64,000 nt of DNA from Sphyrna mokarran (lineage: Eukaryota): the NCBI GenBank assembly GCA_024679065.1, contig JAGIQG010000020.1:17608001-17672000 (forward strand). Direction: 5' to 3'. Both the position numbers and the translations under genes were made by a program. This document shows positions 8,611-49,050 of the stretch, in pieces; position 1 is the first letter of the stretch, and every line of letters starts with the position of its first letter. A model generated the notes under the pieces. It did no database searches. It was not told the origin of the DNA and saw only the letters and a list, made by a program, of their open reading frames with translations.

Positions 8611-8628
8611 ATCACTCTGGAATAGGCA

Positions 8629-13150: not shown

Positions 13151-13370
13151 AATGATGCAGAGACGCTGGTGTTGGACTGAGGTGGGCACAGTAAGAAGTC
13201 TTACAATACCTGGTTAAAGTCCAACAGGTTTATTTGGAATGATGAACTTTTGGAGGGCTGCCCCTTCATCCTCTCCTCCACTCACCTGATTCGGAATAGT
13301 GCTCCGAAAGCTCGTGATTCCAGACAAACGTTTTGGACTTTAACCTGGTACTTGAGACTTTTTACTGTAA
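13151..13370. mobile_element. Fold-back PLE terminal-repeat derivative, family A, with hammerhead-like motif
   Basis: Inverted arms acagtaagaagtc..ggttaaagtccaa / ttggactttaacctgg..gactttttactgt; matches termini of PLE at 36298-38404; TCCAACAGA at 13142-13150 and 13371-13379. Confidence 0.85.
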
Positions 13371-14094
13371 TCCAACAGATAAATATTGGTACTGAACAAC
13401 CATTTGATCTGCTTTTATTCAGGTAGGAGTGATAATGCAACCATGTTTTTGTAATTTGGCTGTCTGAGGGGAACCCAATCTCCCAAGATCGGATTGTAGC
13501 TTCATTTGGTCAGATCGTGCTTTTGCTTCACTGTCTTGCTTTGTCATTCTGCTCATACTCTGATATTCTCACTGGATAAGGGTGATGGTGTAAGAATAGT
13601 CAGTGCACGCAAAAGTTGCAACCTGTCACAAGTTTGACCAGTGTCTTTCTGGTCAGAGAGTGTGAGAATGATCAATATGCGTGAAGCAGAATTTAAACCG
13701 ACTGTTCAAATATCTTCCCCTCTACTATGATAGCTGTCAGACTAACCTGTACCGTTGATGAATCGTTCAATGCCACTATTTTGTTTGTGGCTGGTCGGCA
13801 ATGTCAGTATTCTGTAGCTTGCAAGAAACTCCATGAACTGACTAGAAACAAAACTATGATCCATTGTTTGGACTGATGGTCTCCAGAAAACCCTATTATG
13901 TAAACGACTTGTCTTAAATGTCAGTAACGAAAGTGGCGATTATGGAATTTGTTTTAATGATTTACAGCAATGTACAAGTTAGATCACGAATAGGAAAACA
14001 AAATGGTGATTTCTAGGGTTGCTAACAGTTCGCCAAAAAAACTAATCATTTGGTAAAACAAAATTGCTCTCGCTGAAAATATTTGTTTTTGCGA

Positions 14095-14875
14095 TTTGAT
14101 TTGTTTACTATTGTCATATGTATTAGTACACAGTGAAAAATATTGTTTCTTGAATGTTATACTGACAAAGCACACCATTCGTAGAGAAGGAAAGGAGGGG
14201 GTGCAGAATGTAATATTACAGTCATAACTAGGGTGTAGAGAAAGATCAATTTAATGCGATATACGTCCATTCAAAAGTCTGATGTCAGCAAGGAAGAAGC
14301 TGTTCTTGAGTCAGTTGGTATGTGACTTCAAACTTTTGTATCTCTTTCCCGATGGAAGAAGGTGGAGGAGAAAATGTCCGGGGTGCGTGGGGGTCCTTCA
14401 TTATGCTTCGCTGAGGCAGCGGGAAGTGTAGACTGTCAGTGGATGGGAGGCTGGTTTGTGTGATGGATTGGCTGCATTCAAGACCTTTTGTTGTTTCATG
14501 CGGCCTTGGGCAAAGCAGGAACCATACCAAGCTCTGATACAACCAGAAAGAATGCTTTCTGTGATGCATCTGTAAAAGCTGGTGAGAGTCATAGCTGACG
14601 TGCCAAATGTCCTTAGTTTGCTGAGGAAGTAGAGGCGTTGGAGGGCTTTCTTAACTATAGTGTCGGCATGAGGGGTGAGGAACCAAGGCAGGCTGGTGAT
14701 CTGGACACTTAAAACTTGAAGCTCTCAACCACCCTCATTGAAGTAGACAGGGGCATGTTCTCCACTATGCTTCCTGAATTCGATGACAATCTCCTTTGTT
14801 TTGTTGATATTGAGGAAGAGATTATTGTCACCACGCCAGTTGACCAGATTCTCCACCTCATGACTGTACTGTCTT
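14095..14875 (-). mobile_element. Rex1/Babar-like LINE 3' portion
   Basis: ORF 14401-14592 FYRCITESILSGCIRAWYG; aataaatcaaatc-type tail. Confidence 0.85.
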
Positions 14876-14877
14876 GT

Positions 14878-15860
14878 TTTGTCGAAGGTCTTAATCTTTC
14901 ACTCATCTGGACAATTGCAAGATATCAAATGTAAAGGAAATAAATTATTCCACATGAGAGTGTTGACTGGTTGGCATCGCCATGGTGACTGCACTAGTTA
15001 ATGAAGACTGACAATTAACTCTCTAGCTTTGTGTGAAATTTAAACCAGGCACCTTAACTCTGCCCTAAGGAATGAATCAGCAAATGGCTGTCACTTATTT
15101 TGTTTAGCTGGAACAGGGGCAGCGTTATGTACATCTTGTCTTTGAAAAAAAACAGGGCCTTGCATATCAATATATTTAGCTTCCAAAACATGCTAAATGC
15201 ACCAATGCCCAACTGACTATCTTAAATTAGTTGCCAGCATAATTCTCAGCACACCAAGGATGAGTTAGCAAACGTTGTTCTATGTTGGAGCATCTAATGT
15301 TGGATGCCATTTGAGTTTTGCAAACACGGGCTGGTTGGATGTGGTTTGTACCTTGCCCATTGCGAATAACGGGAAGGACATTTGTTCGATTGAGTCTTTA
15401 AGGTACATACAGCCCAATACCTAGCATCCCAATGGAGCTGAAATTATGTACCACATGATTCATATTTATATGATCAGCTCAATCCCTTTTGGCTTGGCAG
15501 CAGCATCCTATGTGTTGTGGATACCACAATAGAAATAGCATGAAGTGGCTAGCTTCACCTGTTGCCCAGAGTAATCTGAGGTATTCTGGGCACTTTGCAG
15601 AGCCAAACAGGACAGTCTTAGGCCTGTTCATGAGTTTGTGTGATTATATAGTGCAAAATGATCTGTCCAAGGCAGCCGTTATCCTACGGCATGCCTCTGG
15701 TGTGCCTGTTCTGCAGCTGTTTCATGATATCAATTACCTAATTGCTAACATTCGCTTTCTAATATTGTCTGACTTGAATTTTTAAAAATCTTCTTTCTAT
15801 AGAGTCTTAGCTCTGTGATTTCTCTTAAGCTATTTCCATATCTGACAAATGACATTCAGC
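14878..15860 (-). mobile_element. Penelope-like element 3' part, family C (decayed GIY-YIG region)
   Basis: Colinear similarity to 22849-23790; decayed hammerhead motif at ~14878-14915 (minus). Confidence 0.7.
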
Positions 15861-16189
15861 AATCATTAATTCTCAAGTTATGCAGTCCAGACTATCAGCC
15901 TGGATGTTAAAGTTTAGAATTTGGAAAGCGCAAAATAATTTCAGATGTTCCCATTTTCAACAGATTTCAGCATGAGTACAAGGAAATATAATGGAAAATA
16001 AAGGATTTTACATGCTTGGTAGGTAACAAAAGTGCCAAAAACAAGTTGATTAATATGAATCTTAACCTGAAAAGGTTATGAAAAGGCGCTGTATAAATGC
16101 AAACCTCTCTCTCTCTCTCTCTCAAATCCAGCCCCCCTCCCCCCCCACAACCACAATAACCTGTCAGCAACACTACAGCACATCTATAA

Positions 16190-16450
16190 TAGAAGCAAAA
16201 TACTGTGGATGCTGGAATCAAATAAAAAAACAAACGCTGAAAAATCTCAGTAGGTCTGAATCTGTGACAGGAGAATAGAGCTGATGTTATGAGTCTAAAT
16301 GACTCTTCATCAGAACTCAAAACTAGAATCATCTAGATTCTTAATGTTTGTTCTGTTCTTTCCCTGTCAGACACTGTCAGACCTGCTGAGATTTTCCAGC
16401 ATTTTCTGTTTTTGTTTGATTCTAGCATCTGCACTATTTTGCTTTTATTG
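16190..16450. mobile_element. Fold-back element, family B (PLE terminal-repeat type), hammerhead-like motif
   Basis: Arms aagcaaaatactgtggatgctgga..aaaatctcag / ctgctgagattttccagcatt..gcatctgcactattttgctt; same family as 43590-43830. Confidence 0.85.
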
Positions 16451-17929
16451 TACTGTAGTGTTACTTACAAATTATTGTGGTTGTGGGGGGGGTAGGTTTG
16501 TGAGAGAAAGATTAGCATTCATATAGCACCTTTTCATAACAACCAGCTGTTTCACAATGATCTTTGCAGGAAATGAAGTATAATCAGTGTTGTAGGTGAC
16601 AAGAAAGGCTTGAAGGAATTTCCTAAAGACCATACAATATGGATGGGGTTAACGTAGGCCATGAAATGTTTGTGGTCGCTGGAAAAGTAATTGTAATGAT
16701 GCACTTGTCAGCAACACAAAGGATGCTTATTAATGAGGCTCACAGCCTCACTGACCGCCCTGGAGCAGCCCATTAGCTTCTTCTGTCCCCTACATGTCTT
16801 TTACACGCCTTCAGAATGTCTTCTCCCTGAGAGAGAGCTTCATCCCCCCTGAGATAATTATCCTCTGTCAGGTGACTCTCTCCTGCTGTTCTGCCCTTAA
16901 AGGGATAACCTCCACAGTAATATTTTGCTCCTCCATTGCAGCTACATAAACAAACAGTTCCAGAATAAATCACAGGTGATGTGGGAGAAAAGATTCTTTA
17001 GTCTGTTTATAGAGTTATATGGCTGTTCGTTGTGAAGGGAAATCAATATAACCAGTTTAGCGATTTGTTTTCCCCCCATCAAGATGTCTTCGCAAGAGTG
17101 TGATCATTTTTAATCATAAATCATTTGCATTCAGTAATTTAACTAACGTGGCAGGAATTTTTTGTACTATTAACTCAGTTGGAGCAATTTGAAGTAGCTT
17201 ATTAATGCCAATAAGCAGGATTGTTTGGTAAAAGATTCCAAATTGGACTCTGGTTCAGAAATTGTCTGCTAGCATGTGTTTTCTTTCCAGGTACTGTTAC
17301 ACATTTTAACTTCAATCCAAAGCAAGCCAGTTGCTGTAGTCACTTACAATATGTTGCAGGATATTACAAACACCCCTAGAAAGATAGGCTTGCGTAAAGC
17401 ATGATCGGTCTCACTCGCAACCAGCTGCAAACAGCTCGGGTGTGTACAAATATTTCCAAACTGATCTGTGAATGTGTCCAGTTACAGCTCATGGATTGTG
17501 TCGCCTTGAAAGGAAAGGTTTGCGTTTAACAGCTCCACCATGGTAGCAGAATAATGCATTACGATTTATGGTTGGTCAATATGATATTGTTGCTGTACCT
17601 TAACCAGAGGCCAGGATATAAATTCTGTGTGTTGCTTTTGACTTGTGCAATAAAACTATATTTCATTGGCTGTAGTGTATTTTGGGATGCCTGAAGGCTG
17701 TTAAAGACAGTAAATCAATGCATTCTTTTTCTTCCCACCCTACTCTGCCTCCAATAAAGGGCAAAAATACTCCAATATTACCTCATACGTGCACTCAAAT
17801 AGGTCTCTGGCCATTTTAATCTTTAACTCACCGATCCATTATTCTTTCCAACATTCTGTCCTCTACCTCTTGCACCGTTGCAATGGTGCTCATCCTGTTA
17901 CATAGCAGATTACATCCCTCTGACCTCAA

Positions 17930-18190
17930 TGGAATCACAGAATCCTACAGTGCAAAAGGAGGCCATTCGGCCCATTGAGTCTGCACTGACCACAATCCCA
18001 CCCAGGTCCTATCCCTTAACCCCATGTATTTACCCTGCTCATCCCTCTGAGATTAATGGGCAATTTAGCATGGCCAATCAACCTAATCTGCACGTCTTTG
18101 GACTGTGGAAGGAAAGAGGAGGAAATCTATGCAGACACAGAGAGTACCTGCAAACTCCACATAGGCAATGACACAAGCTGGGAATCTTGC
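17930..18190 (-). mobile_element. V-SINE/HE1-like SINE, CR1-type tail A
   Basis: gaatcctacagtgcaaaaggaggccattcggcccat tail; aatttagcatggccaatc core. Confidence 0.85.
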
Positions 18191-18684
18191 AGCTTTCCCA
18201 TTAATGATGGCTCACCCAGTGGGATGATTTACACTCCTAATGGCGTCGCAACGTGATGATTAGGGATTTTTCTCAGCAACTTCATTGCAGTATTGATGTA
18301 AGCCACAATAATCATATAAACTTAAAATGAAAACTGAAGGAATTCTTAAAATTGTATTTATTGATGGCCAAAACTGCCAAGCCATCATTGTAGAGGAGGC
18401 CTCACTTTGAGATAATGGATTGCACACTCAGCTTGTCCCTGTAGCAGTGTCTTAGGAAAGATGTGAAGGCACCAGCCTGTCTAGAAAAGCGTGCCTACAG
18501 GGATCTGCTGAGCTTCGTCCATTAGATAGGGCCTGTGTGCTGTTGGTGGTTAAAAGGCCAGTTAATTGACACTAATGAAAATCCACTGCTTCCATTTGTC
18601 CCCCACCTCCAGGAAGATCTGTTGGAGGGTGTTGGATCACCAACTCAATGTATCATTTTCCAACTTCTCTCTCCACAATTCCTG

Positions 18685-19015
18685 GGGCACAGCGGTTAGC
18701 ACTGCTGCCTCACAGCTCTAGGAACCCGGGTGCAATTCGAGTGCTAGGGACCCGGGTTAAATTCCAGCCTTGGATCACTGTCTGTGTGGAGTTTGCATGT
18801 TCTCCCCATGTCTGCATGGGTTTTGTCCAGGTGCTTCTGTTTCCTCCAAAACAGGTGGATTGGCTGTGCTAAATTGCCCCTTAGTGTCCTGAGATGTGTA
18901 GGTTAGGGGGATTAGCAGGATAAATACATGGGGTTGGGGGATATGGGCTGGGTGAGATTGTTGTTGTTGCAAGCTCATTGGGCCAAATGGCTTCTTTCTA
19001 GAGATTTCATGATAG
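18685..19015 (+). mobile_element. V-SINE/HE1-like SINE, tail A, B-box region duplicated
   Basis: ggttagcactgctgcctcacag head; tagg(a/g)acccggg present twice at 18719-18760. Confidence 0.85.
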
Positions 19016-20944
19016 GGATGTATATTTAAGAGAAGCAAATCTTTTGGCAATGTTGATAAAACTCAATGTTTGAAATGTTTAGTCTTCCAGCTGCTTTGTT
19101 TTTGCCAATCACAGGATGACTTACCATCTACCCTGAAACCCCAGAACATTACTCTAGGTTTGTAGTTTACCAATTCAGTGAACTATACAAGTAGGCCACA
19201 AAGGTCTTCCAAAGATGAGATTTGCAAATCAATAAAATCACATTAGGCACAGGATCGTTTAATTCCATGGAAAGCTGTTCAGTGCGGCCTAAACGTACAA
19301 TGTCTTATTTCGCCCATTTAAATTTTTTTTCAGATGTATCAATTTTGGGTTTGGATCCCCTGCTAGAAATGTTAAAGGTAGGATATCGGATATATTGTAA
19401 GTGGATCAACAGCAGCAAAAGAAAGTAAACTCATTGAAGCCCTTCAGGATTGCAAATTTCTTAGTAATGAATAACACCAACCACCCTGGAGTGGACTTGT
19501 TCACCTTCGAAAGGGGTTAATTTGCAGCAGGTTAATGATCCGTTGAAGTGTAAAGCGTGCTATTTATGCAAACTTAATGTAATCTCTAAGGGGAGAGGGA
19601 GGTGTTTGCCTTACAGGCAAGTGTTTGGGATTGTGGTGCAAATTAAGAAGTTGATAATTTTTATTGCAACGCTGAGCACAACATGTAAACATAATGAGAT
19701 CGTTAGAGGTCTTTAATTTCACTGACCCCAAAGATGTTCTTTAGCATCAATGTTCTGGTAAAGTGTTTTGGCAGGACAGGATAAAATGCTGTGGACCATG
19801 TCGAGCTACGTTTTGTCAGGAAAAAATGACTGCAACATTTAACAGAGGAAATTGATCCAAGCCTGTAATTTCAAGTTCTTTTCCTTGGACTAAGTGGTTA
19901 TTTAACCTGGAGGAAGGAGGGGATGGGGAGGGTGCGAGTGGCAGTGCGCACAGTGCTGAACGGAAATGTTCGTAAAATCTTTGTGTATGTTACAGTCAGG
20001 CTGATAAATCATTACTCGTGAAACTCTTAATAGTTTTATAGTGTTAATGAAGGACATTAATAGGCGATTGTAACCTACTTATTATACGTTTTTCTCTTTT
20101 TTGTTTTAGTTCGTGAATGAGATGATCATTTAATGCAGCCGTTTTTTTTGGGTAAGTTTGATTTTAAACAAATTGTAGCCTTGTGAGTTACAAACAAATA
20201 AAGACCACGGAGCAATAAGAGATTTAAATGACCTCAGTCGTCAGAGCTCAGACTAGCAATGAAACGGGCCTCTTCCTAACTAGACCATCTTACTGTATTC
20301 ATCTACAGCCAACTTGACAACCTACTGATTAGTTAAAGGAGATTTGCCTCTTATACCCAGCATAGACGTTGCTTCTTGTTTATTTTCCAGTTACCACTTT
20401 CGATAAAGTTGTTGTTTCAGTCCTCCTGTGTTTCCATTGAATTGTCTCCTACCTGTTAGCCAGCAGTTGGATGTGTTACTGGAGTGTTTCCCCAGCCTCC
20501 AACTTCCAATGCATCTGACGTTGGACAGCCAACAATCTTCAGGGTATACCACCACCCTGTGCCAATTAGGAAGTGAGAAGACCCTGTGTCGGCCCCCACC
20601 ACCATAGGGAAGTCTTGATAGTTAAAGAACCGTTTCTTTTATTGATTATTAACAAAGGTATTCAGAGACAGAGGTATGCAACACAACTTGAAAAACCCAT
20701 TTGTTTATTACCCCTATGAGTTTTCTCCCTGGCAATGTTCTCACCAGTATCCACAATATTAATTGTCAATCCCGAGGGTTTGACAATTCTTGTAAACTTC
20801 TGAGTTTCTTCTTTATGAACAATTTAGTAATTTTTATTGCAAAAACTGAGTAGAGCATGTAAACATGATGAGATTGTTATAGTCTTGAATTTCACTGTCT
20901 AAGATTATCCTTTAGCATCAATGCTCGGGGTGAAGCGTTTTGGG

Positions 20945-21130
20945 TTGTGATCTATGGAATTCTTTAGGCTCAGTTCAGTATGTTCAAGGCTGAGGGAGAT
21001 TTTTAATCAGTAAGGGAGTTGAACGTTATGGGGATAAGTGAAGGTGAGGATTATCAGATCAATCATCAGCTCGTTGAAATGTGGAGCAGACTTGATGGGC
21101 TGAGTGGCCTATTTCTGCTCCTACGATGTC
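20945..21130 (+). mobile_element. CR1 3' end fragment
   Basis: gatgggctgagtggcctatttctgctcct tail. Confidence 0.65.
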
Positions 21131-22029
21131 TGGTTTTCTCTCGCTGTTTTTTTTCCTGCTTATGAATTATGGATTTTTCCATTTGTAAAAGGAGTTCAGT
21201 GCCTGCTGTAGCATGAGCATCATGACGTGCCGAGTTTGACAATGGGAGAGGTCATGCGGACATAAGACATTTTATTCGGGAGAACCTTTTAAAAGTGTAA
21301 TCATTCAAATGAGATCTTCAGAGTTGATTTTTTACTTCACCTCAAAAACCCAGGAGAGAAAAGTGTCAATGGGTCTCATTAGACCAGCAAATTGAACAAA
21401 GATGGCTTGCTTGCCCTATAGTTATCATTGTAAACGGCCTGGCTGATTTCTCAGTTGCATCTTGTCCAGAAGAGCTCTTGTGCACAATTGTCCAGAATTA
21501 TATCCAGCATGGTGCATGGCTTTGCATATTATTTTGCTGCTTCTCTAAGATCTCATTCTTAAAGTTATTTGTTCAACACTTTGAAATACATTCTGAGCTT
21601 TCTTAGCCAAAAAACCATTCCTTTCCTCCTTGTAAAATCTATCTTTTTTGAGGAGAAAGGATAGTTGCATTTTTTTTAATCTTTAATGTTTAATCTTGGG
21701 AGAACGATGATATTTAAGCACTAATTTAAGCATTTTCATTCAGGGAATTATAACAATCTGAAACTTGCATTACTTCACAATACGTGGCAGTAATTGTGCT
21801 TAGCTGTTCTCTTTTCTGCTCATGTTCATTTGCATCCACTTATTGGAAGAGGCACTGATAGAATGCTTATTTCCAGACTATGGATAATAAATCAAATTCC
21901 AATTCTTTCACTTCAGTTAATTAAAATGTTTTAACATCTGTTCATTCTCGTCTCAGATTTATCAATCTCCCAAGGAGGTTTGGAAAGATATTTAGTGAGT
22001 GAGGCTAGAAGCAATCATAGATGTTAATG

Positions 22030-22540
22030 AGAACAAAGAAAGAACAAGGAAAAGTACAGAACAGGAACAGGCCCTTTGGCCCTCCAAACCTGTGTCAATC
22101 ATAATGCCCTGACTAAACTAAAAATAAAATTTTCTGCTCTTACTCCCTCTATTCCCTCCCTTTTCATATACCCATTCAGATACCTCTTAAATATTGCTAA
22201 TGTGCCTGCCTCCTCTGGCACTGCGTTCCAGACACCCACCACTCTCTGCGTGAAAACTTCCCCCACACATCTCCCTTGAACTTTCCCCCTCTCATCTTGA
22301 ACCATGTAATTGACACTTCTTCCCTGGGAAAAAGTTCTGACTATTTACTCTGTCTGTGCCCCTCATAATTCTGTAGACTTCTATCAGGTCTCCCCTCAGC
22401 CTCTGTCTTTCCAGTGAAAACAATCCTAGTTTATTCAACCTCTCCTCGTAGCCAATGACGTCAAGACCAGACTACATCCTGCTGAACCTTTTTTGCACTC
22501 ACTCCAAAGCTTCCACATCCTTCCGGTAATGTGGCACGCT
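22030..22540 (-). mobile_element. CR1 LINE 3' fragment
   Basis: ORF 22099-22305 FTQRVVGVWNA; gaacaaagaa tail repeats. Confidence 0.85.
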
Positions 22541-22848
22541 AATCGGTGATTCCTGATGTGCTTCAAGCTGAAAGAATGCAGAGATTTATGAGCTGCTGTG
22601 ATTGATTAATGCTCTGAATTCACAAGACTTCTGGATGACCCTTCCCCTGCTTAGTATGTTTCTAGGGTTTAATAACATGTTGGATGTTGTCATATCTGCT
22701 CTAAAACTCACTTCTTTTGAAATTGGTCTGCATGGGATACCTATTCATTAGACCTTGTAAAATTTTACATACACTGCACCTCATTATATAATGTAACAAT
22801 AATTCTAGTAAGCACTTCGTTTAATGTGTCTTCATCAAGACAACTTGA

Positions 22849-23790
22849 ATATTGCTGAAAAAATACATTTTGTTTCATCTTGCACTCATCAGGGCAATTA
22901 CAAGAATGCCAATGTCAAGGCAAATAATTTTGTACTCTGTGATCAGAGTGCTGACTAGGTGACAAGTGGTTGAGTCATTGCCATGGAAAATGTATCAATT
23001 AGTGGTGACTGACAATTAATTACCAAATATTGTTTGAAATTTAAAGCAGGCAGCTTCCTTTATTTTGTCAAGACGTTGTCTTGGGGAATGAACGAGTAAA
23101 TTGCTATCACTTATTTTGTTTAGCTGAAACAAATGCAATGTGTGTACATGTTCTTTCTGTCTCCAAAGGACAGGATCCTGTGTGTTAATATATGTAACTT
23201 CCAGTGTGCACACATGTGCTACAAAGCGAGCCATATCGATAATCTTAATTTAGTTGTTAGTGTAATTCTTAATTCACTGCAGATTATTCAGTAAGTATTG
23301 TTCAATCTCAAAATCACATCTAATATTAGACACTGCTTTGAACTTTGCAAGCACAGGTTGGTGAGGTAGGGTCTGTACTTTGCCATTTGTTACAGCGGGA
23401 GGGATATTCTATTTGATAAAATTGCCAGTCTTTGGGATATACAGTCTACATATCAGGCATGACGTTGGCACTGAAACTCATACCACGAGGAATGGACAGA
23501 ATGTCTTTTTGACTTGATGGTAGCATTCTGTTTGTGGTGAACACCCACCTGTGTTGTACTGCATGGTAGCAGCATGAAGCAGATAGCTTCACTTATTGAT
23601 CAAATATTTTAGTAATGCCTCTACCAATCAGAGTTCACTTGCTGACCAATCAGCACCCTCTCCTCAAACAGTCTGAAGTTATTGTTTCTCTGACATTGTT
23701 ACTCTTGCAATTGTCCTGATGAGTACAAGGTAGGAAGTTCCAACAATAGCTTCAGCAATGCTCAAAATCTATCCTAACAAATGACACTTA
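22849..23790 (-). mobile_element. Penelope-like element remnant, family C, with ~130-bp inverted termini
   Basis: 22849-22975 is the imperfect reverse complement of ~23630-23765; minus strand at ~23400-23490 reads as decayed YEFQC...YV...SQRL...IK (GIY-YIG-like); CTGATGA cores in both termini. Confidence 0.75.
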
Positions 23791-25499
23791 GTTCAAAGCA
23801 TAATTGAAAGAAATACAACAAACAAGTGTCTGTGTAATTCTGTATACTTAGGCAATTTGATTTTCTACTACTAAATTTTTGCAACACCTGTGCTTATGTA
23901 GATAGCACTTCCAGTATTAAATAACTATTTTCATTTTTAGATAGAATAAGTCAAGCCTCTGTGGTGTTGCACATGGAAAAGACTGAGAGCTAGCCAAGAG
24001 GGAAGAAAATAACTGGACATTGATGGAGTCGGAAGCGGCAAGTGGGAAGCTGATGGAGGATGGACACAGAGGGAAGGTAAGGAGCAGGAGAAACTGGGGA
24101 GTTAAGGTTAGTGATGGGAAGGAGTGAGGGGGATGGGGTGGTTGACTTGTGGGTGTGGACAGGGGTCAGGGTGAGAGGAGAATGAGAGGTGGGAGGTGCC
24201 TGAATGATCTGTAATATCAAGGGAACGTTTTCCAAGTATCCAGTTTCCTGTTCTGTGGAGGAAGGAATGCAGCAACAGAGTTGAAGCATTGCCTTTCACT
24301 GGAGAAACAAGAAGCTAGAGATCTGATCGATACAGTGAGAATGAAGTGAAACAGGTAGAATGGTGTGGAGAGAATTGGGCAAGTACAGGTGTTAAGATAT
24401 TGTTGGGTTGTGTAGAGGAAGAGGGCCCTAAAACTCTTCTCAGTAGTGGAGAGGGGGCTCAGGGGACACATACTTTGTGAAAGAAAGCAATAGCCAAAAT
24501 TGCGACAGAAAATCTATTGTATTTGTGGGGGAGGGGGCAATTCCCCAGTCAGTGGGAAGGGGGGAGGGTGCACATTTTCAGATGATCATAAAACTCATAA
24601 TTATGAGGGACTGAGGTTCCAGTGCAATCCACTGGAGTTTAGTTACAGTGGACAAAAAAAACTGCTCGCTGGGTGATGGACAGGATTCCGGGATGATTCT
24701 CAGGAGCCAATGGGCTTGACAATTGTGTGGGAACAATCAGTTTATCATAAGAAACGACACAAAGATTGGGTTGGTGCAGGTCAGAAATCCCGGGAATCTC
24801 AGACTCTTTGGAGAGAAAATTCTCATTGGGTTGTGTAAGTGGAACCCCTAATAGAGTGGTAAGGATTTTAAACCATTAGCCATTAAGGCACTGACAAAGC
24901 TGGCATCGTGCAGCTCAATGACTTTTAAAGTAAGAGTAAGAAGAAGCAACTTGCACATATGAGATGTAGTAATTGATTCAAACAATTGATTATGATTGTA
25001 AAATGTGCCGATAGTTTGAATGTATTATTATTGATTTTAAGGAAAGATGTGCTCTTAGGCTAATTGGCAGAACAAATTCTCCCTGAATTGTCTCAAATTT
25101 GGTTTCAATCCATAGATTTATAAACATAGACAAGTATCATGGGTAGAGGTGGGAACATCGAGGTGTGACGGGGGCTCGTTGGGACAAAGGGTCTGTTTCC
25201 CGTGCTGTTTTGTTCTTTGTTCTTTGAATATTGTTCACTTTAGCCAAGAGCAATTTAATGTGAGGATCAAGGTAGAAAGACATTAGGATGAAGCCAATTC
25301 AAAAGGATAATTGAAGCATGGAAATATGCAAGATTTATCAGTTAACGTTTCGGTTGGAAAGAACGTTTGGAACACTTAATCTTATGTCATGAGTAGAGTT
25401 TATTCACTGTCCAGACGAGATGGACTGGTGCCCAGATTTGGTGTTATGAGTTAATCTGGTCAGAAAGTGACCTTGCAGGGAACTCAAGAGATTGTTTGT

Positions 25500-27082: not shown

Positions 27083-27332
27083 ATAAAAGCAAAATATTGC
27101 ACATGCTAGGATCTGAAACAAAAGCTGAAAATGCTGGAAAATCTCAGCAGGTCTGGAGAGAGAATAGAACCAACATTTCAAGTCAGGATGACCATTCATC
27201 AGAAGTGGAGCCAAGGGAAATGGGACAAGATTTATATTGTTGGGGGGAGGGATGGTGGGTTAGGGGGGGGTCTGTAATTGATGGAGATAGCATAGACAAA
27301 GGGAATGTAAATGATAAAGGCTGCGAATGGTG
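27083..27332 (-). mobile_element. Family B PLE-type terminus plus purine-rich flank
   Basis: aaagcaaaatattgcacatgct..gctggaaaatctcagcaggtctgg; minus CTGATGA-A-TGGTC-ATCCT-GACTT-GAAA. Confidence 0.75.
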
Positions 27333-27337
27333 TTAAT

Positions 27338-27440
27338 TCAGTAAGAGGTCTGACAACACCAATTTTAAATCTAACCTATTTATTTGATAGTAAACTTGCA
27401 AGCTTTTGGCCTTTGTAGCCTTCGCCTGACAAAGGCCTGG
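27338..27440 (-). mobile_element. Family A PLE terminus fragment
   Basis: cagtaagaggtctgacaacacc..tttatttgatagtaaacttgcaagcttt matches 36298-36365. Confidence 0.75.
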
Positions 27441-28871: not shown

Positions 28872-28890
28872 CTACCAGCAGATGGCAGAC
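28872..28890 (+). promoter_or_regulatory. Candidate CTCF site
   Basis: CCAGCAGATGGCAG at 28875-28888 matches CTCF core. Confidence 0.45.
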
Positions 28891-29064: not shown

Positions 29065-29552
29065 CTAGGGTGTAATGGTTAACACTGCTGCCTCTCAGCT
29101 CTAGGAACCTGAGTTCGATTCCAGCCTTGGGTGACTGTTTGGAGTTGCATGTTCTCCATGTGCCTTCATGATGCAAAATAGTGTCCCAAGTTATATAGAT
29201 TAGGGGGATTAGCAGGTTATGTGAATAGGACAGGTCGTGGGCCGAGGTGAGGTGGTCTGTCAGAGAGCTAGTGCAGACCTGATGAGCTGAATATCCTCCT
29301 TCTGCACTGCAGGGATTTTAAGCGTGGGTTCCCTCCTGGTGCTCCAGTTTCCACCCACCATCTAAAGATGTGCAGGTTAGGTGGATTGACCATGCTAAAT
29401 TACTCTTTAATGTCCCAAGATGTGTAGATTAGATGGGTCAGCCATGATGCATGTGTGGGGTTACAGGGACAGGGTGGGAGAGATGCACTGTCAGAGAATT
29501 GGCACAGACTCAGTGGGCCGAATGGCCTCTTCTGCACTGTAGGCGTTCTATG
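29065..29552 (+). mobile_element. Two tandem V-SINE copies (one with head, one headless), tail A
   Basis: Head at 29065-29135; tails ending ~29320 and ~29552. Confidence 0.8.
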
Positions 29553-30479: not shown

Positions 30480-30756
30480 ATTTATACCAGTAGACTTGCA
30501 TTAACACTGCAAAGAAATCACTATGAATATCCCCTAGTCATCACACTACGGCGCCTGTTCGGGTACACTGAGGGAGAATTTAGCACAGCTGATGCACCTA
30601 ATCTTTCGGACTGTGGGAGGAAACTGGACCTCCGGGAGGAAACCCATGCAGACATGGGGAGAATGTGCAGATTCTGCACAGACAGTGACCCAGGCCAGGA
30701 ATCGAACCCAGGTCCCTGTGAGGCTGCAGTGCTAACCACTGTGCCATCGTGCCTCC
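30480..30756 (-). mobile_element. V-SINE, tail B
   Basis: ggcgcctgttcgggtacactgagggagaatttagca; gcagtgctaaccactgtgcc. Confidence 0.85.
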
Positions 30757-35777: not shown

Positions 35778-36085
35778 GGGTGGCACAGTTGTTAGCACTG
35801 CTGCCTCACAGTGCCAGGGACCTGGATTCAATTCCCGGCTCAGGTCGCTGTCTGGGAGAAATTTTCCCGTTCTCCCTGTGTCTGCATGGGTTCTCTCCAG
35901 GTGTTCCTGTTTTTTCCCACAGATTTGAAGGTTAGGTGTATTGGTCATGATAAATTGTCCCTTATTGTCAGGGGGACCAGCATGAATAAATGCATGGGGT
36001 TATGGGGATAGGGTCTCAGGTAGGATTGTTGTTGGTGCTGACTTGATAAGCTGAATGACCTCCTCCAGCTTTGTAGGATTCTCTG
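35778..36085 (+). mobile_element. V-SINE, tail A
   Basis: gggtggcacagttgttagcactgctgcctcacagtgccagggacc head. Confidence 0.85.
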
Positions 36086-36297
36086 AAAAGGGATTTTTTA
36101 TTTCGGAAATTGAATCCTGTGCTGACTGACTAATTGGCTTGCCATAGTCATGAGGTACAGTGCCTGTGGACAGATATCTTGGGTTCAGCCCAATAAAAAC
36201 TTTCCCACAGTAGAGGTTACACAAGCAGAGTCCCCTCTTTCAAATTAAAGAGAGTTCACAAAAAAAACAGAGTTAGATGTCTGGAGGACAAGATAAA

Positions 36298-38404
36298 ATA
36301 AGAAGTCTGACAACATCAGGTTTAAGTCCAACCGATTTATTTTATAGTAAACTCGCAAGCTTTCGAGGTTTGCCCCTTCGTCAGGTGAATGGAGAGTTCT
36401 GGCCTCAGACAGAGCATACAACAACACAGACATTTTACAGATTACTGATTAGAATGCCAGTCTTTACAACTAACTTGCTATTCAAGTTTTAAAGAGGCCG
36501 TGCTCTCATTCCATGTACTCTCCACATTGGGGATCTCTACTGCCTCCCAAAGATACACAAGGCAAACACACCCGGCCGTCCCATTGAATCGGGCAGTGGG
36601 ACCCTGTGCGAGAACCTCTCCAGCTATGTTGAGGGCATCCTGAAACCTATTGTATAGGTCCGACACTACGGACTTCCTACAGAAACTCAGCACACGTGGA
36701 GCAATTGAACCATGGACACTCCTCATCACAATGGATGTCTCAGCACTCTACACCAACATCCTCCATGACAATGGCATTGCTGCCTCAGTACTCAATGCCG
36801 ACAACTGCCAGTTTCCAGATGCAATTTTATAACTCACCAGCTTTATCTTGGACCATAATGTTTTCATCTTTTTCATCCAGACACATGGAACAGTTATGGG
36901 GACCAAATTCACACCTCAATTTGCCAACATCTTCTTGCACAGGTTTGAACAAGTCTTCTTCACCGCATGAGATCTTCAACCAATGCTATACACTAGATAC
37001 ATTGATGACATTTTCTTCCTTTGGACTCATGGTGAACAATCACTGAAACAACTATATAATGATATCAACAAGTTCCATCCCACCATCAGACTCACCGTGA
37101 ACTATTCTCCAGAATCGATTGCATTCTTGGACACATGCATCTCCGTCAAGGACGGTCACCTCAGCACCTCACTGTATTGCAAGCCTACCGACAACCTCAC
37201 AATGCTCCACTTCTCCAGCTTCTGCCCTAAACATGTGAAAGAAGCCATCCCCTATGGACAAGCCCTCCATATACACAGGATCTGCTCAAATGAGGAGGAT
37301 TGCAGCAGACACCTCCAGATGCTGAAAGATGCCCTCTTAAGAACAGAATATGGCGCTCGGCTCATTGATCGACAGTTCCGATGCGCCATAGTGATAAACC
37401 GCACCGACCTCCTCAGAAGACAAACACGGGACACGGTGGACAGATTACCCTTCGTCATCCAGTACTTCCCCAGAGTGGAGAAGCTACAACATCTTCTCTG
37501 GAGTCTTCAACATATCATTGATAAAGACACCATTTAGCCAGGGCCTTCCCCACACCCCCACTTTTTGCTTTCAGACAACCGCGCAACCTCAAACAGACCA
37601 TTGTTCGCAGCAAACTCCCAAGCCTTCAGGAGAACAGTGACCACAATACCACACAACCCTGCCACAGCAACCTCTGCAAGACATGCTGGATCATTGACAT
37701 GGATGACATCATCATACGTGAGAATACTATCCACCAGGTACACGGTACATACTCTTGCAACTCGACCAACGTTGTCTACCTAATACGTTGCAAGAAAGGA
37801 TGTCCCGAAGCATGGTACATTGGGGAGACCATGCAGACACTACGACAGCAGATGAATGAACATCGCTTGACAATCACCAGGATTCCTGTTGGCGAACACT
37901 TCAGCTGTTACGGGCATTCGGCCTCTGATCTTTGAGTAAGCATTCTCCAAGGGGGCCTTCCCAACACACGACAGCACAGAGTTGCTGAGCAGAGACTGAT
38001 AGCCAAGTTCCCACACATGAGGATGGTCTTAACAAGGACCTTATGTTCATGTTGCACTATCTATAACCCCCATGACTTGCCTGGGTTAGCAAAAAACTTC
38101 ACTTACTGTGCTGTCTGGAGACAATACACATCTCTTTAACCTATGCTTAATGCTCCTTCCACTCACATTGTCAGCCACTTTAAGACTTGAATAGCAGGTT
38201 AGGTGTAAAGACTTGCATTCTAATCAGTAATCTGTAAACTGTCTGTGCTGTTATATTCTCTGTCTGAGGTCAGAACTCTCCATTCACCTGACGGAGGGGC
38301 AAACCCCAAAAGCTTGTATTTCCTATCTATCGGTTGGACTTAAACCTGGTGTTGTCAGACTTCTTACTATGTTTACCCCAGTTCAATGCTGGCATCTCCA
38401 CAGC
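36298..38404 (+). mobile_element. Penelope-like retroelement (RT + GIY-YIG), 5'-truncated, inverted terminal repeat, family A
   Basis: TMDVSALYTNI and YTRYIDDIFFLW RT motifs; NVVYLIRC..C..WYIGET GIY-YIG; 36298-36470 is reverse complement of ~38200-38368; AGGACAAGATAAA at 36285-36297 and 38405-38417; stops/frameshifts present. Confidence 0.93.
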
Positions 38405-38417
38405 AGGACAAGATAAA

Positions 38418-42730: not shown

Positions 42731-42744
42731 AACTAGTTTCTGGT

Positions 42745-43565
42745 TTGATTTATTATTATCACAGGCACTGAGATACAGTGAAAAGTATTGTTTTACGTGC
42801 AATCCATACAAATCATATCATACATAATCCATCAGGACAGTGTGCATAGGGCAAGGAAGATACCTGAGAGCCATTTAAAAATCTGGTAAAGCAGAAAAGA
42901 AGCTGTTCTTCAGTCTGTTGATACATGTCTTCAAACTTCTGTATCTTCTGCCTGATGGAAGAGGGTGGAAAAGAGTGTGAGAGAGTGTAATGGATGGGAG
43001 GGGGTTTTTTGGTTGATTGTGTTCACTACTTTCTCAAGGCAGTGAGATGTGTAGGCGGAGTCAATGAATGGAAATTGGTTTGTGTGATGGACTGGGCTGC
43101 ATTCACAACACTCTGTAATTTCTTCTGGTCTTGGGCAGAGCACTTGCCATAACAAGCTGTGATGCATCCATGTAGGATGCTTTCTATGGTGCATCTATAG
43201 AAGTTGATAAAAGTCATTGTGGATATATTGAATCTCTTAGTCTTCTGAGGAATAAAAAGCATTGGTGTGCTTTCTTAACTGTGGCGTCTACATGGGTGGA
43301 CCGGGACAAATTGTAGTTATCTTTACTCCTAGAAACTTTAAGCTTTCTCCATCTCATTGACACAGGTAAGAGTGCGTCCTTCACTCTGCTTCTTGAAGTC
43401 AAAGACCAGCTCCTTTGTTTCACTGCCACTGGGGGGGGGGAGGTTTTTCCCTTTGCAGCATGTCGCTCTGCTCTTTATACCTTTCCTATCCTCTGTCTTG
43501 TTGTTTGAAATCTGACTTAATATGGTGGTGTCATCAGCAAACTTAAATGGAGTTAGAGCCAAAGT
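42745..43565 (-). mobile_element. Rex1/Babar-like LINE 3' portion
   Basis: KFADDTT RT motif; FYRCTIESIL.GCITA.YG. Confidence 0.88.
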
Positions 43566-43589
43566 TGGATTGCCAGCAGTAATAACTAG

Positions 43590-43828
43590 ATAAAAGCAAA
43601 TTACTGCAGATGCTGGGATCTGAAACCAAAAGAGAAAACGCTGGAAAATCTCAGCAGGTCTGGCAGCATCTGTAAGGAGAGAGAAAGAGCTGATGTTTCA
43701 AGTCCAGATGACCTTTTGTTAAAGTTTTGACAAGGGGACATCTGGACTCAAAATGCCAGCTCTTTCTCTCTCCTTACAGATGCTGCCAGACCTGCTGAGA
43801 TCTTCCAGCATTTTCTCTTTTGGTTTTA
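43590..43828. mobile_element. Fold-back element, family B, near-perfect ~100-bp arms
   Basis: gctggaaaatctcagcaggtctggcagcatctgtaaggagagagaaagagctg / cagctctttctctctccttacagatgctgccagacctgctgagatcttccagc; GATTGCCAGCA at 43568-43578 and 43829-43839. Confidence 0.9.
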
Positions 43829-44434
43829 GATTGCCAGCAAAGTTGAAACGCAGAGAATAAATGGGAGAGTGTTAGCATTCTCCCTTCTGAATCAGAATGT
43901 TCTGAGTTCAAATGTCAGTCCAGAGATTTTGGAACAGTATTTCAGTCGCATTCTGAGGAGAGCAACGAGAGAGTGCTTCATTATCAGAAAGGATGTAGGA
44001 GTAACGTGACAAATAAAATCTCTTTTAGCTTTCAGTTTTGTGTTGTTAGGCTTTGTGACTGCAACAAAAATGGAAATGATCATACAATTAATTCCACAAT
44101 CTTGACTGTGACGTAAGGGAAAGAGGACAGGAAATTAGACAACAGACTGTGCTGGCTTTGCAATCTTTCTAGTGAGTGGTTGAAATGTCATTAAGTTGTA
44201 TAAATTGCCAAGGTTTTGAGTGAGAAATGGGAAGGGTCACAAAAAGGAGGAAAGTACAATTAAAGTGACTATTTGTGTGCAATGGGGAGAAACCCTATCA
44301 TTAACACAATTGAGGTTTATAAAGTTAAAAGTCTTTTTCTTTATTTAACAAGTCAATGTGGATGCTTTGGCCACTTTCTGAGGGGGTTACTCATAAAGAC
44401 TTCTTTTATTATTTCTAATAACCTGCCTCTCTTT

Positions 44435-44770
44435 ATAGAACCATCGAATCCCTACAGCACAGAGCGAGACCATTCAGCCCATCGTGTCTGCACCAAGTCT
44501 GTCTGACAGAGTACCCGAAACCCCATATATTTACCATGACTAATCCATCTGATTTACACATCTTGAGGGACGTAAGTGGCAATTTAGCATGACTAATCCA
44601 CTTAACCTGCACACTTTTGGCCTGTGGGAGGAAACTGGAGCACCCAGAGGAAACCTCCCACGCAGTGGCGGGGAGAACATGCAAGCTCCAACCAGAAAGT
44701 GACCCAAGGCTGGAATTGAACCCAGGTCCCTGGAGCTGTGAGGCAGCAGTATTAATCCACTGTGCCTGAT
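44435..44770 (-). mobile_element. V-SINE, tail A
   Basis: ccattcagcccatcg tail; ctgtgaggcagcagt head. Confidence 0.85.
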
Positions 44771-46324
44771 GTGCTTTTTCTAAAAGGAGCTGGATAGTTT
44801 GCTAACTGTAAATCAGTGCTCTTGGGAGAATAGGAACATTTGCTTTGTCAAAATGCTCAAAGTTTTCCCACATTCTCATGTGAATACACCCTTGACAAAG
44901 CAGTAATATCCCTCCTGGACCAACTCAAGCATTATCCACTACATGATTCATATACACACTGACTAACAAACTGCAGTTTTAACAGTAGAATTCTGAAATT
45001 AAATCAGGAACACTTGATGCTTTATGTACCTCCGATAATTCCACAGAAATGGGGATGGATTAGATATTCTTCTGTTTGAACAGGCAGTAAATTTACTCAC
45101 CATTTTCTTTGAAGAGAACAGTGAATCCAAAAACAGCACTAAAACCTATTGTGGGTCAACATTGCCTTTATAAGTGGAACTCCTTCCAAAGTTGAAGAGC
45201 TTTCAACAAACTGAGTCACTGATATTTAGCTTCTCGATTGTCTGCTGCTCTTTAAAATGCCAACAAAAATAGGTGTCCATGTGGCAATGTCCTCTAATGA
45301 TACTCAGTGACTTTATAACTCTAAATGGTTCTTTTTATTGAATGGAACATATTGCTGAGAATTTAATACTGACTGATTTTAAATAGGAATAGTTTGGAGC
45401 TTGATCTTATTCAGAATCATGATTCAGATCTTGGAAAACAGAAGCCGTTCTGTTTTCTCCTGGGCGCAATATGGAGAACGCGGGAACAACAGGAATTCTG
45501 CCGCTAACAAGTTGCTTTGTGTAAGTGCGTAAAAAGTGCAGTAAATTGATTAGCTATTTGTAAATTTCATGCTGTGACTAAACTAATAAGAACTCATCAG
45601 CGTGAGTACCAAAAATTGAAGTTTAACAGCAATGTGAGATTGTACTTTTTTAGAGTAAAGTAATATTTGTACACATAATGTGTGATGATAAGATTATTAG
45701 TAGCTTTCTGTGTTTACAGGTTACTATTACAGGGATGATAGCATCACTATCTAACCTCTCTGAGCTGGTGAGAGCCCAAGCTGATGGAGATGTCAGGAGA
45801 TTAGAGAGTCTGAGAATGGGAGTGATCACAGTGAGACTCTGACCTGGTTACAGAGCTGCAGAGGAGCCCGAGTCACAGATACGAGTAATTCAGTAATAGA
45901 TTGGAATTCTAGCAGATTGGTGACAGAGAATTGGAACAGCTCTGAGCCTGATCACAAGCTACTAAATTGCCTAACTTACGCTGGGACGTTAACCTGATTT
46001 AGCAGGATTATACAATCACCCTTCAGGCTTCTTTCTGCACCAATTTTAACAATTCCCATAACGCAGTGTCCAATTTTGGGGGTGGCAGTGTAATAGACAC
46101 ATTCCACAGACCTTTCAATACAACCTAGATTTTAAAATGTTTTTGGGCAGTGTAGAGTTGCTTTTGGATTGAAACATTGGATCTTTTCAATTGGTTAAAG
46201 CTTACTATGTGCTACTCAGCTGCATGGCTGCAGTAAGAGTTACCACTGAATCCAGGCTGGTCACTTGACCACGTAAGATGACTAAAATGGTGAAGACTAA
46301 TGCCCGTATTTTTATGTTTATTTT

Positions 46325-46605
46325 ACTTTTATTGTCACAAGTAGATTTACATTAACACTGCAATGAAGTTACTGTGAACAATTCCCTCGTCACCACAACT
46401 CTGGCACCTGTTCGGGTACACTGAGGGAGAATTTAGCATGGCCAATGCACCTAACCAGCACATTTTTCGAGTGTGGGAGGAAACTGCAGCACCCGGAGGA
46501 AACCCATGCAGACACGGGGAGAATGTGCAGACTCCATATACAGACAGTGATCCCAGGATTTGTATCCAGGTCCCTGTGAAGCAGCAGTGCTAACCACTGT
46601 GTTAC
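46325..46605 (-). mobile_element. V-SINE, tail B
   Basis: tcacaagtag..cattaacactgcaatgaagttactgtga. Confidence 0.85.
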
Positions 46606-47216
46606 TGTGTTTTTAAACTGTGAGGGAACTGGGGGCATAGTAGGATACATATTGATCTTTTGTGCCGGGGAGCTGGGGGTGAGAACAAACTATTGTGATG
46701 CAAAGGAAGTCTCGCTGATGTGAGTACAAAATTTGGCATATCACTAATTAGAAAATTCATTGAGATGCTACCAGACACTTGGGCAATGGAAAAGGCAATT
46801 TTCCTTGGCAGAGTACAGATTTCTGTTTTGCAGGTAAGGCTGCTTTGGGTTCTTTGAGCAAGCTTTGCACTGTATCTAGCTATATGCTACCTGAGCGAAA
46901 AGCAGTTTGATTTGAGTGATCATTAACCTCCATGGAAAACAATATCAGATGAGGTGCAAAGCAGATATTGATCTACCATATCCATTTCCTGCCAGGCAGG
47001 TCAGACTAATACTTCACCGAGGTGTGTGAGATGACAGCAACAACTCTCTTCGGCAGCAGCACTTTTAGGAAAAGAAATTTCATCACAAAAGCTATTTAAA
47101 AAGGTTGACTAGTCTTTATATGTGACAAACCACATATTGGAAAAACATGATTAGATTCCTATGAACACTATTAGTTACTTGATTAGTCAATCACATTATT
47201 GAAATTATTTTCTAAG

Positions 47217-47515
47217 GGCGGAGACACAGTGGTACAGTGATTAGCACTGCTATCTCACAGCGTCAGGGACCCAGATTTGATTGCAGCCTTGGGTGACTGT
47301 CTGTGTGAGGTTTGCACATTCTTCTTGTGTCTGTGTGGGTTTCCTCCCAGAGTCCAAAGATGTGTGGGTTAGGTTGATTGGCCATGCTAAAATTGTCCCT
47401 TAGTGTCAGATGATTAGCAGGGTAAATATGTGGGGTTACAAGAGTAGGGCAGGATTGTGGTCAGTGCGTACTCAATGGGCGGAATGGCAGCCTCCTGCAT
47501 TGTAGGATTCTATGA
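47217..47515 (+). mobile_element. V-SINE, tail A
   Basis: Full head to gattctatga tail. Confidence 0.85.
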
Positions 47516-47828
47516 TTACCTGTGATGGCTCTGGTGATTCAGCCCGTTTTGACGATTGCACCTTGCCATGTAATAGAACCCCAGATGTTTTCCAACATCT
47601 GGAGCTTCTTGCCTCTGCCTTTGATATTGGAAGTCATTGACAGATCTAGCTCGGCAATCTGAATCATTTTACTACAAATTGCTGCTGGTTGGTTCAAAAA
47701 GGCAGAAATGGGTGACTGGAATTGAACGAATATCAGTTTTCAGAAGTGGTAGGGAGTGTGTATTGAATACTGCATTGATCAGGAAATAGATGTGTGTCAC
47801 CAATATCAGTATCCCCTTGAACTCTAAT

Positions 47829-48339
47829 TGATATGGAATTCTTCTTCTATCCAGTTAAATTCGCACTTTGCACCTTCGACAGAGTAGACAAACTTTGGGT
47901 TTTAAATTAGTCTTTATTCAAGCTATAACAAGGAAGTCTGTCTTCCACAACGTAGTGTACAGACTTGCTGAGTGATACATAGCACAAACAGTTATACCTT
48001 TGCTTATCTTACAAGTATTTTGCATATAGCAATCACAAGTATATATTTGTTCTGATGTAATTAGTATCCAGTTGCAACGAATAGTTCTGATTACTTCATT
48101 TATGTTAGGTGAATATTGTTAACCGGTACAACCTATATATGCTTGTCTGATTATAATGATTAATTACTAATCAGGTTACAGTGTTATACCATTCAAACAT
48201 CTACATCCTTATGGTTACCACTTTGTGGTTATCAGGGATCTCACCCTTTTGTCCCTTGGTCAGCTTGTTTGTGCTGTTCATCTGCAAGTGTGGGAACTGC
48301 ACATCTTCACAGCACCTACCTAGAGAACTGTACTGTACA
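47829..48339 (-). mobile_element. Candidate solo LTR (~510 bp)
   Basis: TG...CA ends, TAAT at 47825-47828 and 48340-48343, minus-strand AATAAA (~47913-47918) and TATA-like GTATAA (~47992-47997) in U3-R-U5 order. Confidence 0.4.
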
Positions 48340-48348
48340 TAATTGTAG

Positions 48349-48520
48349 TCATGATGTGGAGATGCCAGTGTTGGACTGGGATAAACACAGTAAGAAGCCT
48401 CACAACACCAGGTTAAAGTCCAACAGGTTTATTTGGTAGTAAACGTCACTAAAGCTAGTGGCATTTGCTACCAAATAGACCTGTTGGACTTTAACCTGGT
48501 GTTGAGACTTCTTACTGTAC
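48349..48520. mobile_element. Fold-back element, family A, perfect-centred hairpin
   Basis: acagtaagaag..accaggttaaagtccaacagg..tttggtag / ctaccaaa..cctgttggactttaacctggt..cttcttactgt. Confidence 0.88.
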
Positions 48521-48552
48521 TTAATTCACAGGGAACATTCAATTTTTTTAAA

Positions 48553-49050
48553 TTAATTTGAGAGTATTGCTGGCTGGCCAGTATTTATTGCCCATCCCTA
48601 TTTGCACTTGTTTAGAGGTACTTTAGAATCAGCTACATTGGTGTGCCTTTGAAGTCACATGTAGGCCAGACCAGGTAAGGACAGCAGATTTCCTTCCCTA
48701 AAGGACATTAGTGAACCAGATGTTTCTTTAAAAGCAAAATATTGCAGATGCTGGAATCTGAAACAAAAGCAGAAAAATGCTGGAAAATCTCACAGGTCTG
48801 TCAGCATCTGTGGAGGGAGAAATAAAGTTAACGTTTTGAGTCTAGATGACCCTTCATCGGAGTTGTTTTTCATATTGTAGATATTTCTTTTTTGACAATT
48901 AACAATGGTTTCATGGTCAACAATGGATTCTTAATTCCAGATATTTTTTACTCAATTCAGATTCCATCTTCTGTCGTGGTGGAATTGAACCTGGCTCCTC
49001 TGAACGTGAGCTGAGTTTCTGGATTAGTATTCTAGTGATAATATTACTTG
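48553..49050 (-). mobile_element. Second-family SINE interrupted by a family B terminus (~48730-48865)
   Basis: tttattgcccatcccta tail; insert flanked by AGAT(G/A)TTTCTTT at 48718-48729 and 48879-48890. Confidence 0.75.

Follow-up and report, generated by a model that had tools for sequence, protein, structure and literature searches.

Hammerhead ribozyme motifs in the end repeats of three coding Penelope-like families of Sphyrna mokarran, and a probable run-off origin for their short copies

What kind of element places the same minimal hammerhead ribozyme in three different fold-back repeats within 64 kb of the Sphyrna mokarran genome, and are those repeats mobile units in their own right? 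The window, as the whole 64,000-nucleotide stretch is called here, is C772:17,608,001-17,672,000 (contig JAGIQG010000020.1) of a 2.77 Gb assembly. A first, sequence-only reading had described about ten hammerhead loci in it, many of them coding-less hairpins and every copy with a lesion, and had proposed a very abundant, non-autonomous, ribozyme-bearing retroelement system. Our study found the motifs of all three families (A, B and C) to sit in the end repeats (pseudo-long terminal repeats, pLTRs) of three coding families of Penelope-like elements (PLEs), and the short solo copies and hairpins are probably dead-end run-off complementary DNAs (cDNAs).

The nine motifs named at the outset were all present at their coordinates, and the division into three separate families, each with a Penelope-type minimal type I hammerhead, was borne out. 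Profiles were built for each family from 28-30 genomic relatives (eight profiles, namely six subfamilies of A together with B and C), and these detected 17 arms at 12 window loci (five A, four B and three C), where about ten loci had been counted before. The additional arms lie at 27322-27440, 38139-38403, 48354-48528 and 61895-62151, and a reverse transcriptase (RT)-endonuclease frame was added within 36.3-38.4 kb. A genome sample of 100 stretches of 10 kb (1.0 Mb), taken at round coordinates on large contigs, contained 85 A, 67 B and 12 C arms. This density of ~165 arms per Mb, which extrapolates to roughly 450,000 arms in the assembly, upholds the description of the system as very abundant. 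No match was obtained when the family profiles were run on reversed sequence, and the window is slightly denser than the sample (17 arms compared to 10.8 expected; Poisson p 0.049, with clumping not yet allowed for).

A strict minimal-hammerhead descriptor matched one site in the window (36384, minus strand) and 11 in the 1.0 Mb sample, all 11 within A or B, compared to one match in 9.6 Mb of dinucleotide shuffles and none in 1 Mb of reversed sequence; the hammerhead motifs are not chance occurrences. Rfam and descriptor searches had both been suggested as checks, and their outcomes were divided: the descriptor recovered the minus-strand copy at 36351-36390, and an Rfam scan of the window with E values up to 10 returned no hammerhead family. 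All 16 Rfam matches scored below the gathering score, and the microRNA matches merely reflect the hairpin at 43.6-43.8 kb.

The coding parents were clearest for family A. Relatives of the RT piece in the window (26,307 first-look candidates, of which 150 were scored) carried open frames of up to 913 aa, and the long frames (882-913 aa) matched the Pfam domains RVT_1 (E 1e-9) and GIY-YIG (E 5e-4, which is below the curated cut-off). These frames carry DKG and a CxxxxCxxC linker, with CCHH endonuclease motifs visible, and the A motif stood directly after the open reading frame (ORF) in 12/12 fetched long-frame copies. Full-length relatives were needed for these matches, as none of five window fragments was matched by Pfam. 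For B and C, extension into the upstream sequence reached GIY-YIG frames in a decayed state, and the coding parts of both families are known only as remnants; a motif of the same family lies downstream of the endonuclease remnant at 20/25 B loci and 15/25 C loci. A CX2-5CxxC linker finger was recognisable in 7/25 decayed B copies, and the 25 decayed C copies shared no linker motif, with four scattered chance matches. Under the criterion of Craig et al. 2021 (PMC8557442; this and all later citations refer to excerpts of the papers), a linker finger in A and B and none in C would make A and B Neptune-type (or Nematis-type) and C Poseidon-type, putative clade calls that have the linker motif as their sole basis. 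A pLTR with an adjacent inverted 5'-truncated copy was found at window 36299-38404 and in L221, L224-L226 and L228-L232. Copies of a young A subfamily are 98-100 % identical and have open frames, and the coding copies of B are about 25 % diverged.

The ribozyme itself was examined with signed positions counted from C3, the first base of CUGANGA. All eight profile majorities have the full core (C3 U4 G5 A6 N7 G8 A9, G12 A13 A14 A15, U16 H17) and a palindromic helix III (AGCU, ACGU or AAGCUU), and an extra base precedes helix II in A and B, not in C. The family consensus, proposed earlier as a check, was therefore intact for CUGANGA, GAAA and UH in every majority, and its second part, helix covariation, was found in A and not in B or C. 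Among 111 distinct A motifs, compensatory states occur at helix I pair 2 (A-U 49, G-C 40) and at helix II pairs 2-4, and helix II pair 3 (C-G 37, G-C 30, A-U 30) is paired in 94 % of motifs compared to 43 % when shuffled, although this covariation reflects about six subfamily states and the shuffle ignores relatedness. The decay of CpG sites cannot mimic the C-G/G-C swaps among these states. In B (55 motifs) and C (27 motifs) the helices pair and no covariation was seen.

Single genomic arms retain an intact core in 34/82 cases for A, 6/54 for B and 2/15 for C. Most genomic copies are thus damaged, but the claim that every copy carries a lesion holds at window 36351-36390 (minus) only in a weak sense, as the core there is fully intact and helix I has a single A-C mismatch. 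In A, non-CpG positions diverged from the majority at 0.060 within the core and at 0.124 outside it; the corresponding values were 0.089 and 0.188 in B, and 0.152 and 0.284 in C. This halving of variation, approximate and common to all three families, is read as selection that keeps the ribozyme in the master elements while inserted copies decay. Core positions at CpG sites differ from the majority at 0.23-0.39; G8 to A and G12 to A, each after a C, are the lesions seen most often, and decay is fastest where C11.1-G12 and C7-G8 form CpG sites. In predicted two-copy folds, natural A and C copies pair through helix III, and the B copy folded otherwise. The young A subfamilies (L221-L232 and L333-L350) have lost the TATA box and show a helix II that is highly variable between otherwise 98-99 % identical copies, and one young A variant retains just 2 bp of helix I, which may indicate a relaxing constraint on the ribozyme or a hypervariable loop.

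The 5' ends were counted for arms starting between -120 and +60. In family A, 37/87 arms start in -17..+2 (9.7 expected if uniform), and in family B 48/95 arms start in -9..+3 (6.9 expected if uniform). The B solos have unrelated DNA upstream, and in the first 100 of 359 genome matches to an exact B pattern roughly half, judged by eye, show unrelated sequence within 3 nt of helix I. Where arms retain the upstream UTR (untranslated region), a TATA box lies at a fixed place, at -36 in two older A subfamilies (28/43 and 24/36 arms), at -34 in 33/59 B arms and at -45 in 27/68 C arms. Transcription starts about 30 nt from a TATA box, and 30 bases past each of these stands an A after a pyrimidine, at -6 in A, -4 in B and -15 in C. 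That A is the first base of helix I in families A and B, and the first base of a possible pseudoknot strand in C. At the other side, tailed A arms extend as far as the start codon of the ORF at +129, stopping there or slightly within it. For A and B the ribozyme therefore lies at the predicted first base of the RNA, very many short copies end there, and the start site is predicted precisely. Two sets of assembled contigs, one of them only presumed to be RNA, cover the element; starts, ends, strand and level are unreadable from them.

Hairpins proved less prominent than first described. Coding-less copies are real, but only four of the 12 window loci are short hairpins (none of family C), one further locus being a coding unit with inverted ends, and the short hairpins have the look of terminal products. 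Junctions were compared in an unbiased set, consisting of the random stretches, the window and those arms whose family differed from the one for which their locus had been fetched; arms that came within 15 nt of the edge of a locus, or that stopped short of +45, were left out. All hairpin junction coordinates in this set are distinct (A 29/29, B 13/13), and the lack of any recurring junction indicates that each hairpin formed anew at insertion, in the established PLE insertion pattern (PMC8557442, PMC3846280). Exactly one arm has the long 3' end in 25/29 A pairs (14.4 expected if independent) and in 9/13 B pairs, with a threshold between long and short arms that was chosen after the data were viewed; the arm reaching further 5' was the tailed one in 7 pairs and the tail-less one in 14, with 4 ties. 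Target-site duplications of 11-14 bp bound 4/5 inverted units of the window. When folded in silico, the four window hairpins form long duplexes whichever strand is taken (67-88 % paired), and in the two most diverged of them helix II is still predicted to form locally. As the inverted partner is antisense, it cannot serve as the second sense copy of a ribozyme dimer.

Internal priming and extension on both strands in the Anolis Poseidon element (PMC11167929) lead us to infer that the short copies are run-off cDNAs of the 5' UTR. The TATA box would drive an RNA polymerase II transcript that opens with the ribozyme, and the element protein would nick DNA and prime internally at either of two sites, as in Anolis Poseidon (PMC11167929). 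Reverse transcription would start about 100-130 nt into the RNA and run off its 5' end. A cDNA that reached this end and did not transfer to another pLTR would be sealed in as a solo of 110-135 bp, or would be joined head-to-head to a second cDNA, giving a hairpin. The template RNA would mostly be uncut when copied, with the ribozyme cutting only as a dimer or with protein help, and the short copies, having lost the TATA box, would not propagate alone. A fuller form of this reading, with a 'strong-stop' cDNA as in retroviruses, is put forward more tentatively, and we judge it slightly less likely than not. In it the RNA opens with the hammerhead 30 nt after the TATA box, RT runs off after priming beside the start codon at the far side of the 5' UTR, and the hundreds of thousands of 5' UTR fossils in the genome stem from failed transfers, marking the start site and recording that the ribozyme was uncut. 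This form includes for family C a pseudoknotted hammerhead with a stem II of 1-2 bp, the pseudoknot strand being the first bases of the transcript. The pattern points to uncut RNA as the in vivo template.

Several observations, in addition to the restricted covariation described above, weigh against the run-off reading. Profile-based ends are fuzzy by several bases, and the start windows are post hoc, having been fixed after the first sample was viewed. Among ORF-joined copies, which were drawn from the young, TATA-less A subfamilies only, 0/18 start at -6; their ungapped extents range from -23 to -193, and one starts at ~+21. Family C shows no pile-up, 13/16 arms carrying a long UTR, and the C window of the start test was misplaced. 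A weak second cluster of A starts lies near the cleavage site (10/36 downstream starts, 5.4 expected, p 0.037; the corresponding B count is 7/33, p 0.14), so some templates may have been cleaved. The Drosophila Penelope element has a TATA-less internal promoter (PMC2377424). An extra G precedes the predicted start in 8/14 B solos, a post hoc count with 10 UTR-remnant rows set aside, and this signal is weaker in the exact-pattern rows, where C is the commonest preceding base. A cap-derived G at the B 5' ends was thus considered as suggestive only.

An alternative source of the pile-up is structure, either a stall of RT or a snap-back and self-priming of the cDNA at the hammerhead helices and short palindromes (such as the AGCU within helix I of B). 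Self-priming at junction palindromes has been proposed for rotifer Penelope (PMC3846280), several hairpin centres here, that of window 48345-48516 among them, fall on AGCU palindromes, the two arms of a unit carry the same subfamily variant, and the young ORF-joined copies do not start at -6. Snap-back at palindromes is a fair rival where the hairpins are concerned. However, the same accumulation of starts is seen in solos whose upstream DNA is unrelated, a stall would be expected where RT first meets the 3' side of a helix and not once the helix has been passed, and two families of unlike sequence both have a TATA box exactly 30 nt upstream of the pile-up. As an account of the pile-up, structure is unlikely.

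The original proposal, that the short copies form a true non-autonomous family, transcribed and re-mobilised in trans in the manner of short interspersed elements (SINEs) or retrozyme monomers, draws some strength from the scarcity of longer B copies, as only 5/97 unbiased B arms extend >30 nt upstream and the B coding copies are so diverged (~25 %). Any dead pLTR with a TATA box could supply template in trans, and animal retrozymes derive from pLTRs (bioRxiv 10.64898/2026.07.22.740005). Against this, the motif of each family lies downstream of its own RT/GIY-YIG frame, no two hairpins have a junction in common, 5' ends scatter over several bases beside unrelated flanks, and the short copies leave the TATA box behind; an inverted pair makes no dimer, and the window contains no tandem array of units. 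The non-autonomous claim is accordingly not supported, and is improbable. It is very improbable that the B boundary is a 3' splice site and the short copies derive from spliced RNA, since no upstream exon is common to 61 B solos and A has the same pile-up with no AG there, despite a pyrimidine tract that closes with CAG at -5..-3 in the upstream sequence of the B majority and a Drosophila Penelope intron that ends at helix I (PMC4209133).

Under the preferred reading, that of run-off cDNAs from coding PLEs, the elements are of a known kind, and the finding as first written is an ordinary one. Minimal pLTR hammerheads, truncated and opposite-strand copies, tails and pLTR TATA/initiator motifs are already in print. 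The PLE hammerheads described by Cervera and De la Pena 2014 (PMC4209133) resemble those found here in their intact core, short helix I, extra base before helix II (in A and B), G10.1-C11.1 pair and palindromic helix III, in the many variant families per genome, and in occurring mostly as single motifs of truncated elements, also as opposite-strand pairs. The number differs, with ~30,000 strict motifs here (extrapolated from 11 per Mb; Poisson ~15,000-55,000) compared to ~4,000 in the coelacanth and 9,000 in Xenopus, although the descriptors are not the same. Family C also departs from that account, in the excerpt cited, by its helix II of 1-2 bp, its lack of the extra base and its possible pseudoknot, and sharks are unnamed there. 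The canonical endonuclease PLE unit (Craig et al. 2021, PMC8557442; Arkhipova et al. 2013, PMC3846280) likewise has RT with a C-terminal GIY-YIG, a pLTR, an inverted 5'-truncated neighbour copy, a tail of 30-40 bp at one end and a variable duplication, and a TATA box and initiator had already been described in the rotifer Penelope pLTR (PMC3846280). Unlike the present pattern, 5' ends clustering at TATA+30 and a ribozyme opening the transcript are not reported in those excerpts.

The closest functional comparison is the Anolis Poseidon element PAc (Frangieh et al. 2024, PMC11167929), in which RT starts internally at two sites that bound the tail, both strands are cut and extended, the hammerhead lies near the 5' end of the RNA and uncut RNA is the main template, as found in vitro. 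PAc has its ORF start inside the hammerhead, unlike family A, whose ORF begins where the tail ends, 129 nt past C3; furthermore, PAc activity was shown by experiment, whereas the families here are known from sequence alone. Non-LTR retrozymes (Cervera and De la Pena 2020, PMC7229834; Li et al. 2026 preprint), reported in one chondrichthyan, are also coding-less, pLTR-related type I hammerhead repeats. Unlike the solos and inverted pairs seen here, they form head-to-tail arrays of 150-450 bp units that give circular RNA, and no head-to-tail tandem hammerhead unit was found in the 64-kb window. In the part of the literature covered, no account of shark copies, nor of 5' ends at TATA+30, was found, and earlier lists may include shark or pseudoknotted variants. 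The origin of PLE inverted ends and the role of the hammerhead are open questions in the field (PMC8557442, PMC11167929). The anatomy of the start-site pattern is thus the part that could matter and is worth a bench test, for which the young family with its nearly identical copies and open frames is a practical substrate.

Family C deserves separate consideration, as its helix II has only 1-2 pairs. Loop II is complementary over a run of 7 bp to the strand lying 5' of helix I in 16/37 motifs, and the mean run is 5.6 compared to 4.06 when shuffled (max 4.49), with no compensatory change seen. The pseudoknot-stabilised hammerheads of Perreault et al. 2011 (PMC3088659) share the tiny stem II of 1-2 bp and a loop II that is complementary over 6-7 bp to the strand directly 5' of helix I; unlike them, family C adds a palindromic minimal helix III within a PLE. 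When C-type ribozymes with different loops were sought by pattern, five matches came up, all of them family C itself. The AUG within CUGAUGA of the C majority opens a short frame through the ribozyme (window 23716 onward), reminiscent of Anolis Poseidon, whose ORF begins within its hammerhead.

Among the window loci, the three family C copies are pLTR remnants. That at 14877-15024 (minus) has a damaged core (CAGAUGA, motif 14878-14915), that at 22839-23026 (minus) has lost helix III and UH to a deletion (motif 22872-22895), and that at 23610-23810 (plus) has a motif at 23711-23750 that lacks GAAA, with an upstream UCUUGCA complementary to loop II. Family B is represented by a short hairpin at 16190-16450 (minus hammerhead at 16278-16318, with GAAA changed to AUAA; no duplication detected) and by a second at 43588-43828, whose arms both begin 4-5 nt before C3, have a damaged CUGANGA (43687-43760) and are bounded by an 11-bp duplication. 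A solo short B copy at 48727-48866 (minus) begins ~5 nt before C3 and has a damaged core (CCGAUGA and AAAA, 48825-48865). The B pLTR at 27093-27341 (minus) keeps its upstream UTR, a TATAAA box and an intact core, and in its motif at 27165-27205 helix I is broken and the G10.1-C11.1 pair is missing.

In family A, the short hairpin insertion at 13152-13372 has a tailed minus arm that begins within CUGAUGA, a plus arm that begins ~11 nt before C3 with a hammerhead motif at 13281-13319 (plus) whose CUGANGA is hit by a deletion, and an 11-bp target-site duplication. A second short hairpin (48345-48516) is folded at the helix III palindrome, has neither CUGANGA nor helix II and is flanked by a 14-bp duplication. 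The coding unit at 36299-38404, bounded by a 13-bp duplication (36285-36297 and 38405-38417), comprises an inverted partial pLTR at 36299-36500 (minus; its hammerhead is the sole window copy to pass the strict descriptor), a 5'-truncated, frameshifted frame at approximately 36520-38070 (plus) for a putatively Neptune-type RT with CxxxxCxxC linker and GIY-YIG endonuclease, and a direct 3' pLTR with tail at 38139-38404 (plus), in whose hammerhead (38282-38321) A9 and G12 are changed. Beyond the range covered initially, an A pLTR with UTR, tail and damaged core lies at 61895-62151 (plus). A short A arm of another subfamily at 27322-27440 (minus) adjoins the B copy at 27093-27341.

Contact between A and B was also seen elsewhere. 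At L023:1263-1729 and L029:1199-1714, A elements occupy the same place in B copies, just after the B ribozyme, with a ~14 bp duplication, and A abuts B in L058, L147 and at window 27.3 kb, so that a target preference between the two families is possible. The chimeras in L023 and L029 had been considered as fossils of the cleavage site; they are in fact A inserted in a B copy, with the 5' part of B upstream.

Other repeats were also recorded in the window. An abundant SINE-like repeat, which we take to be a shark HE1-type SINE, occurs at 12812-13030, 18686-18922, 29069-29448, 30486-30735, 35779-35971 and 44581-44757, among others, with further copies at 46399-46593, 47228-47408, 52664-52799 and 55067-55267 (families D1, D3-D5 and D7-D9). 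A young LINE-like (long interspersed element) RT frame is present as three 3' fragments that are 99 % identical (8601-9275, plus; 60435-61013, minus; and 62214-62556), and a direct repeat of 131 nt, 98 % identical and 1.1 kb apart, lies at 53022-53152 and 54123-54253.

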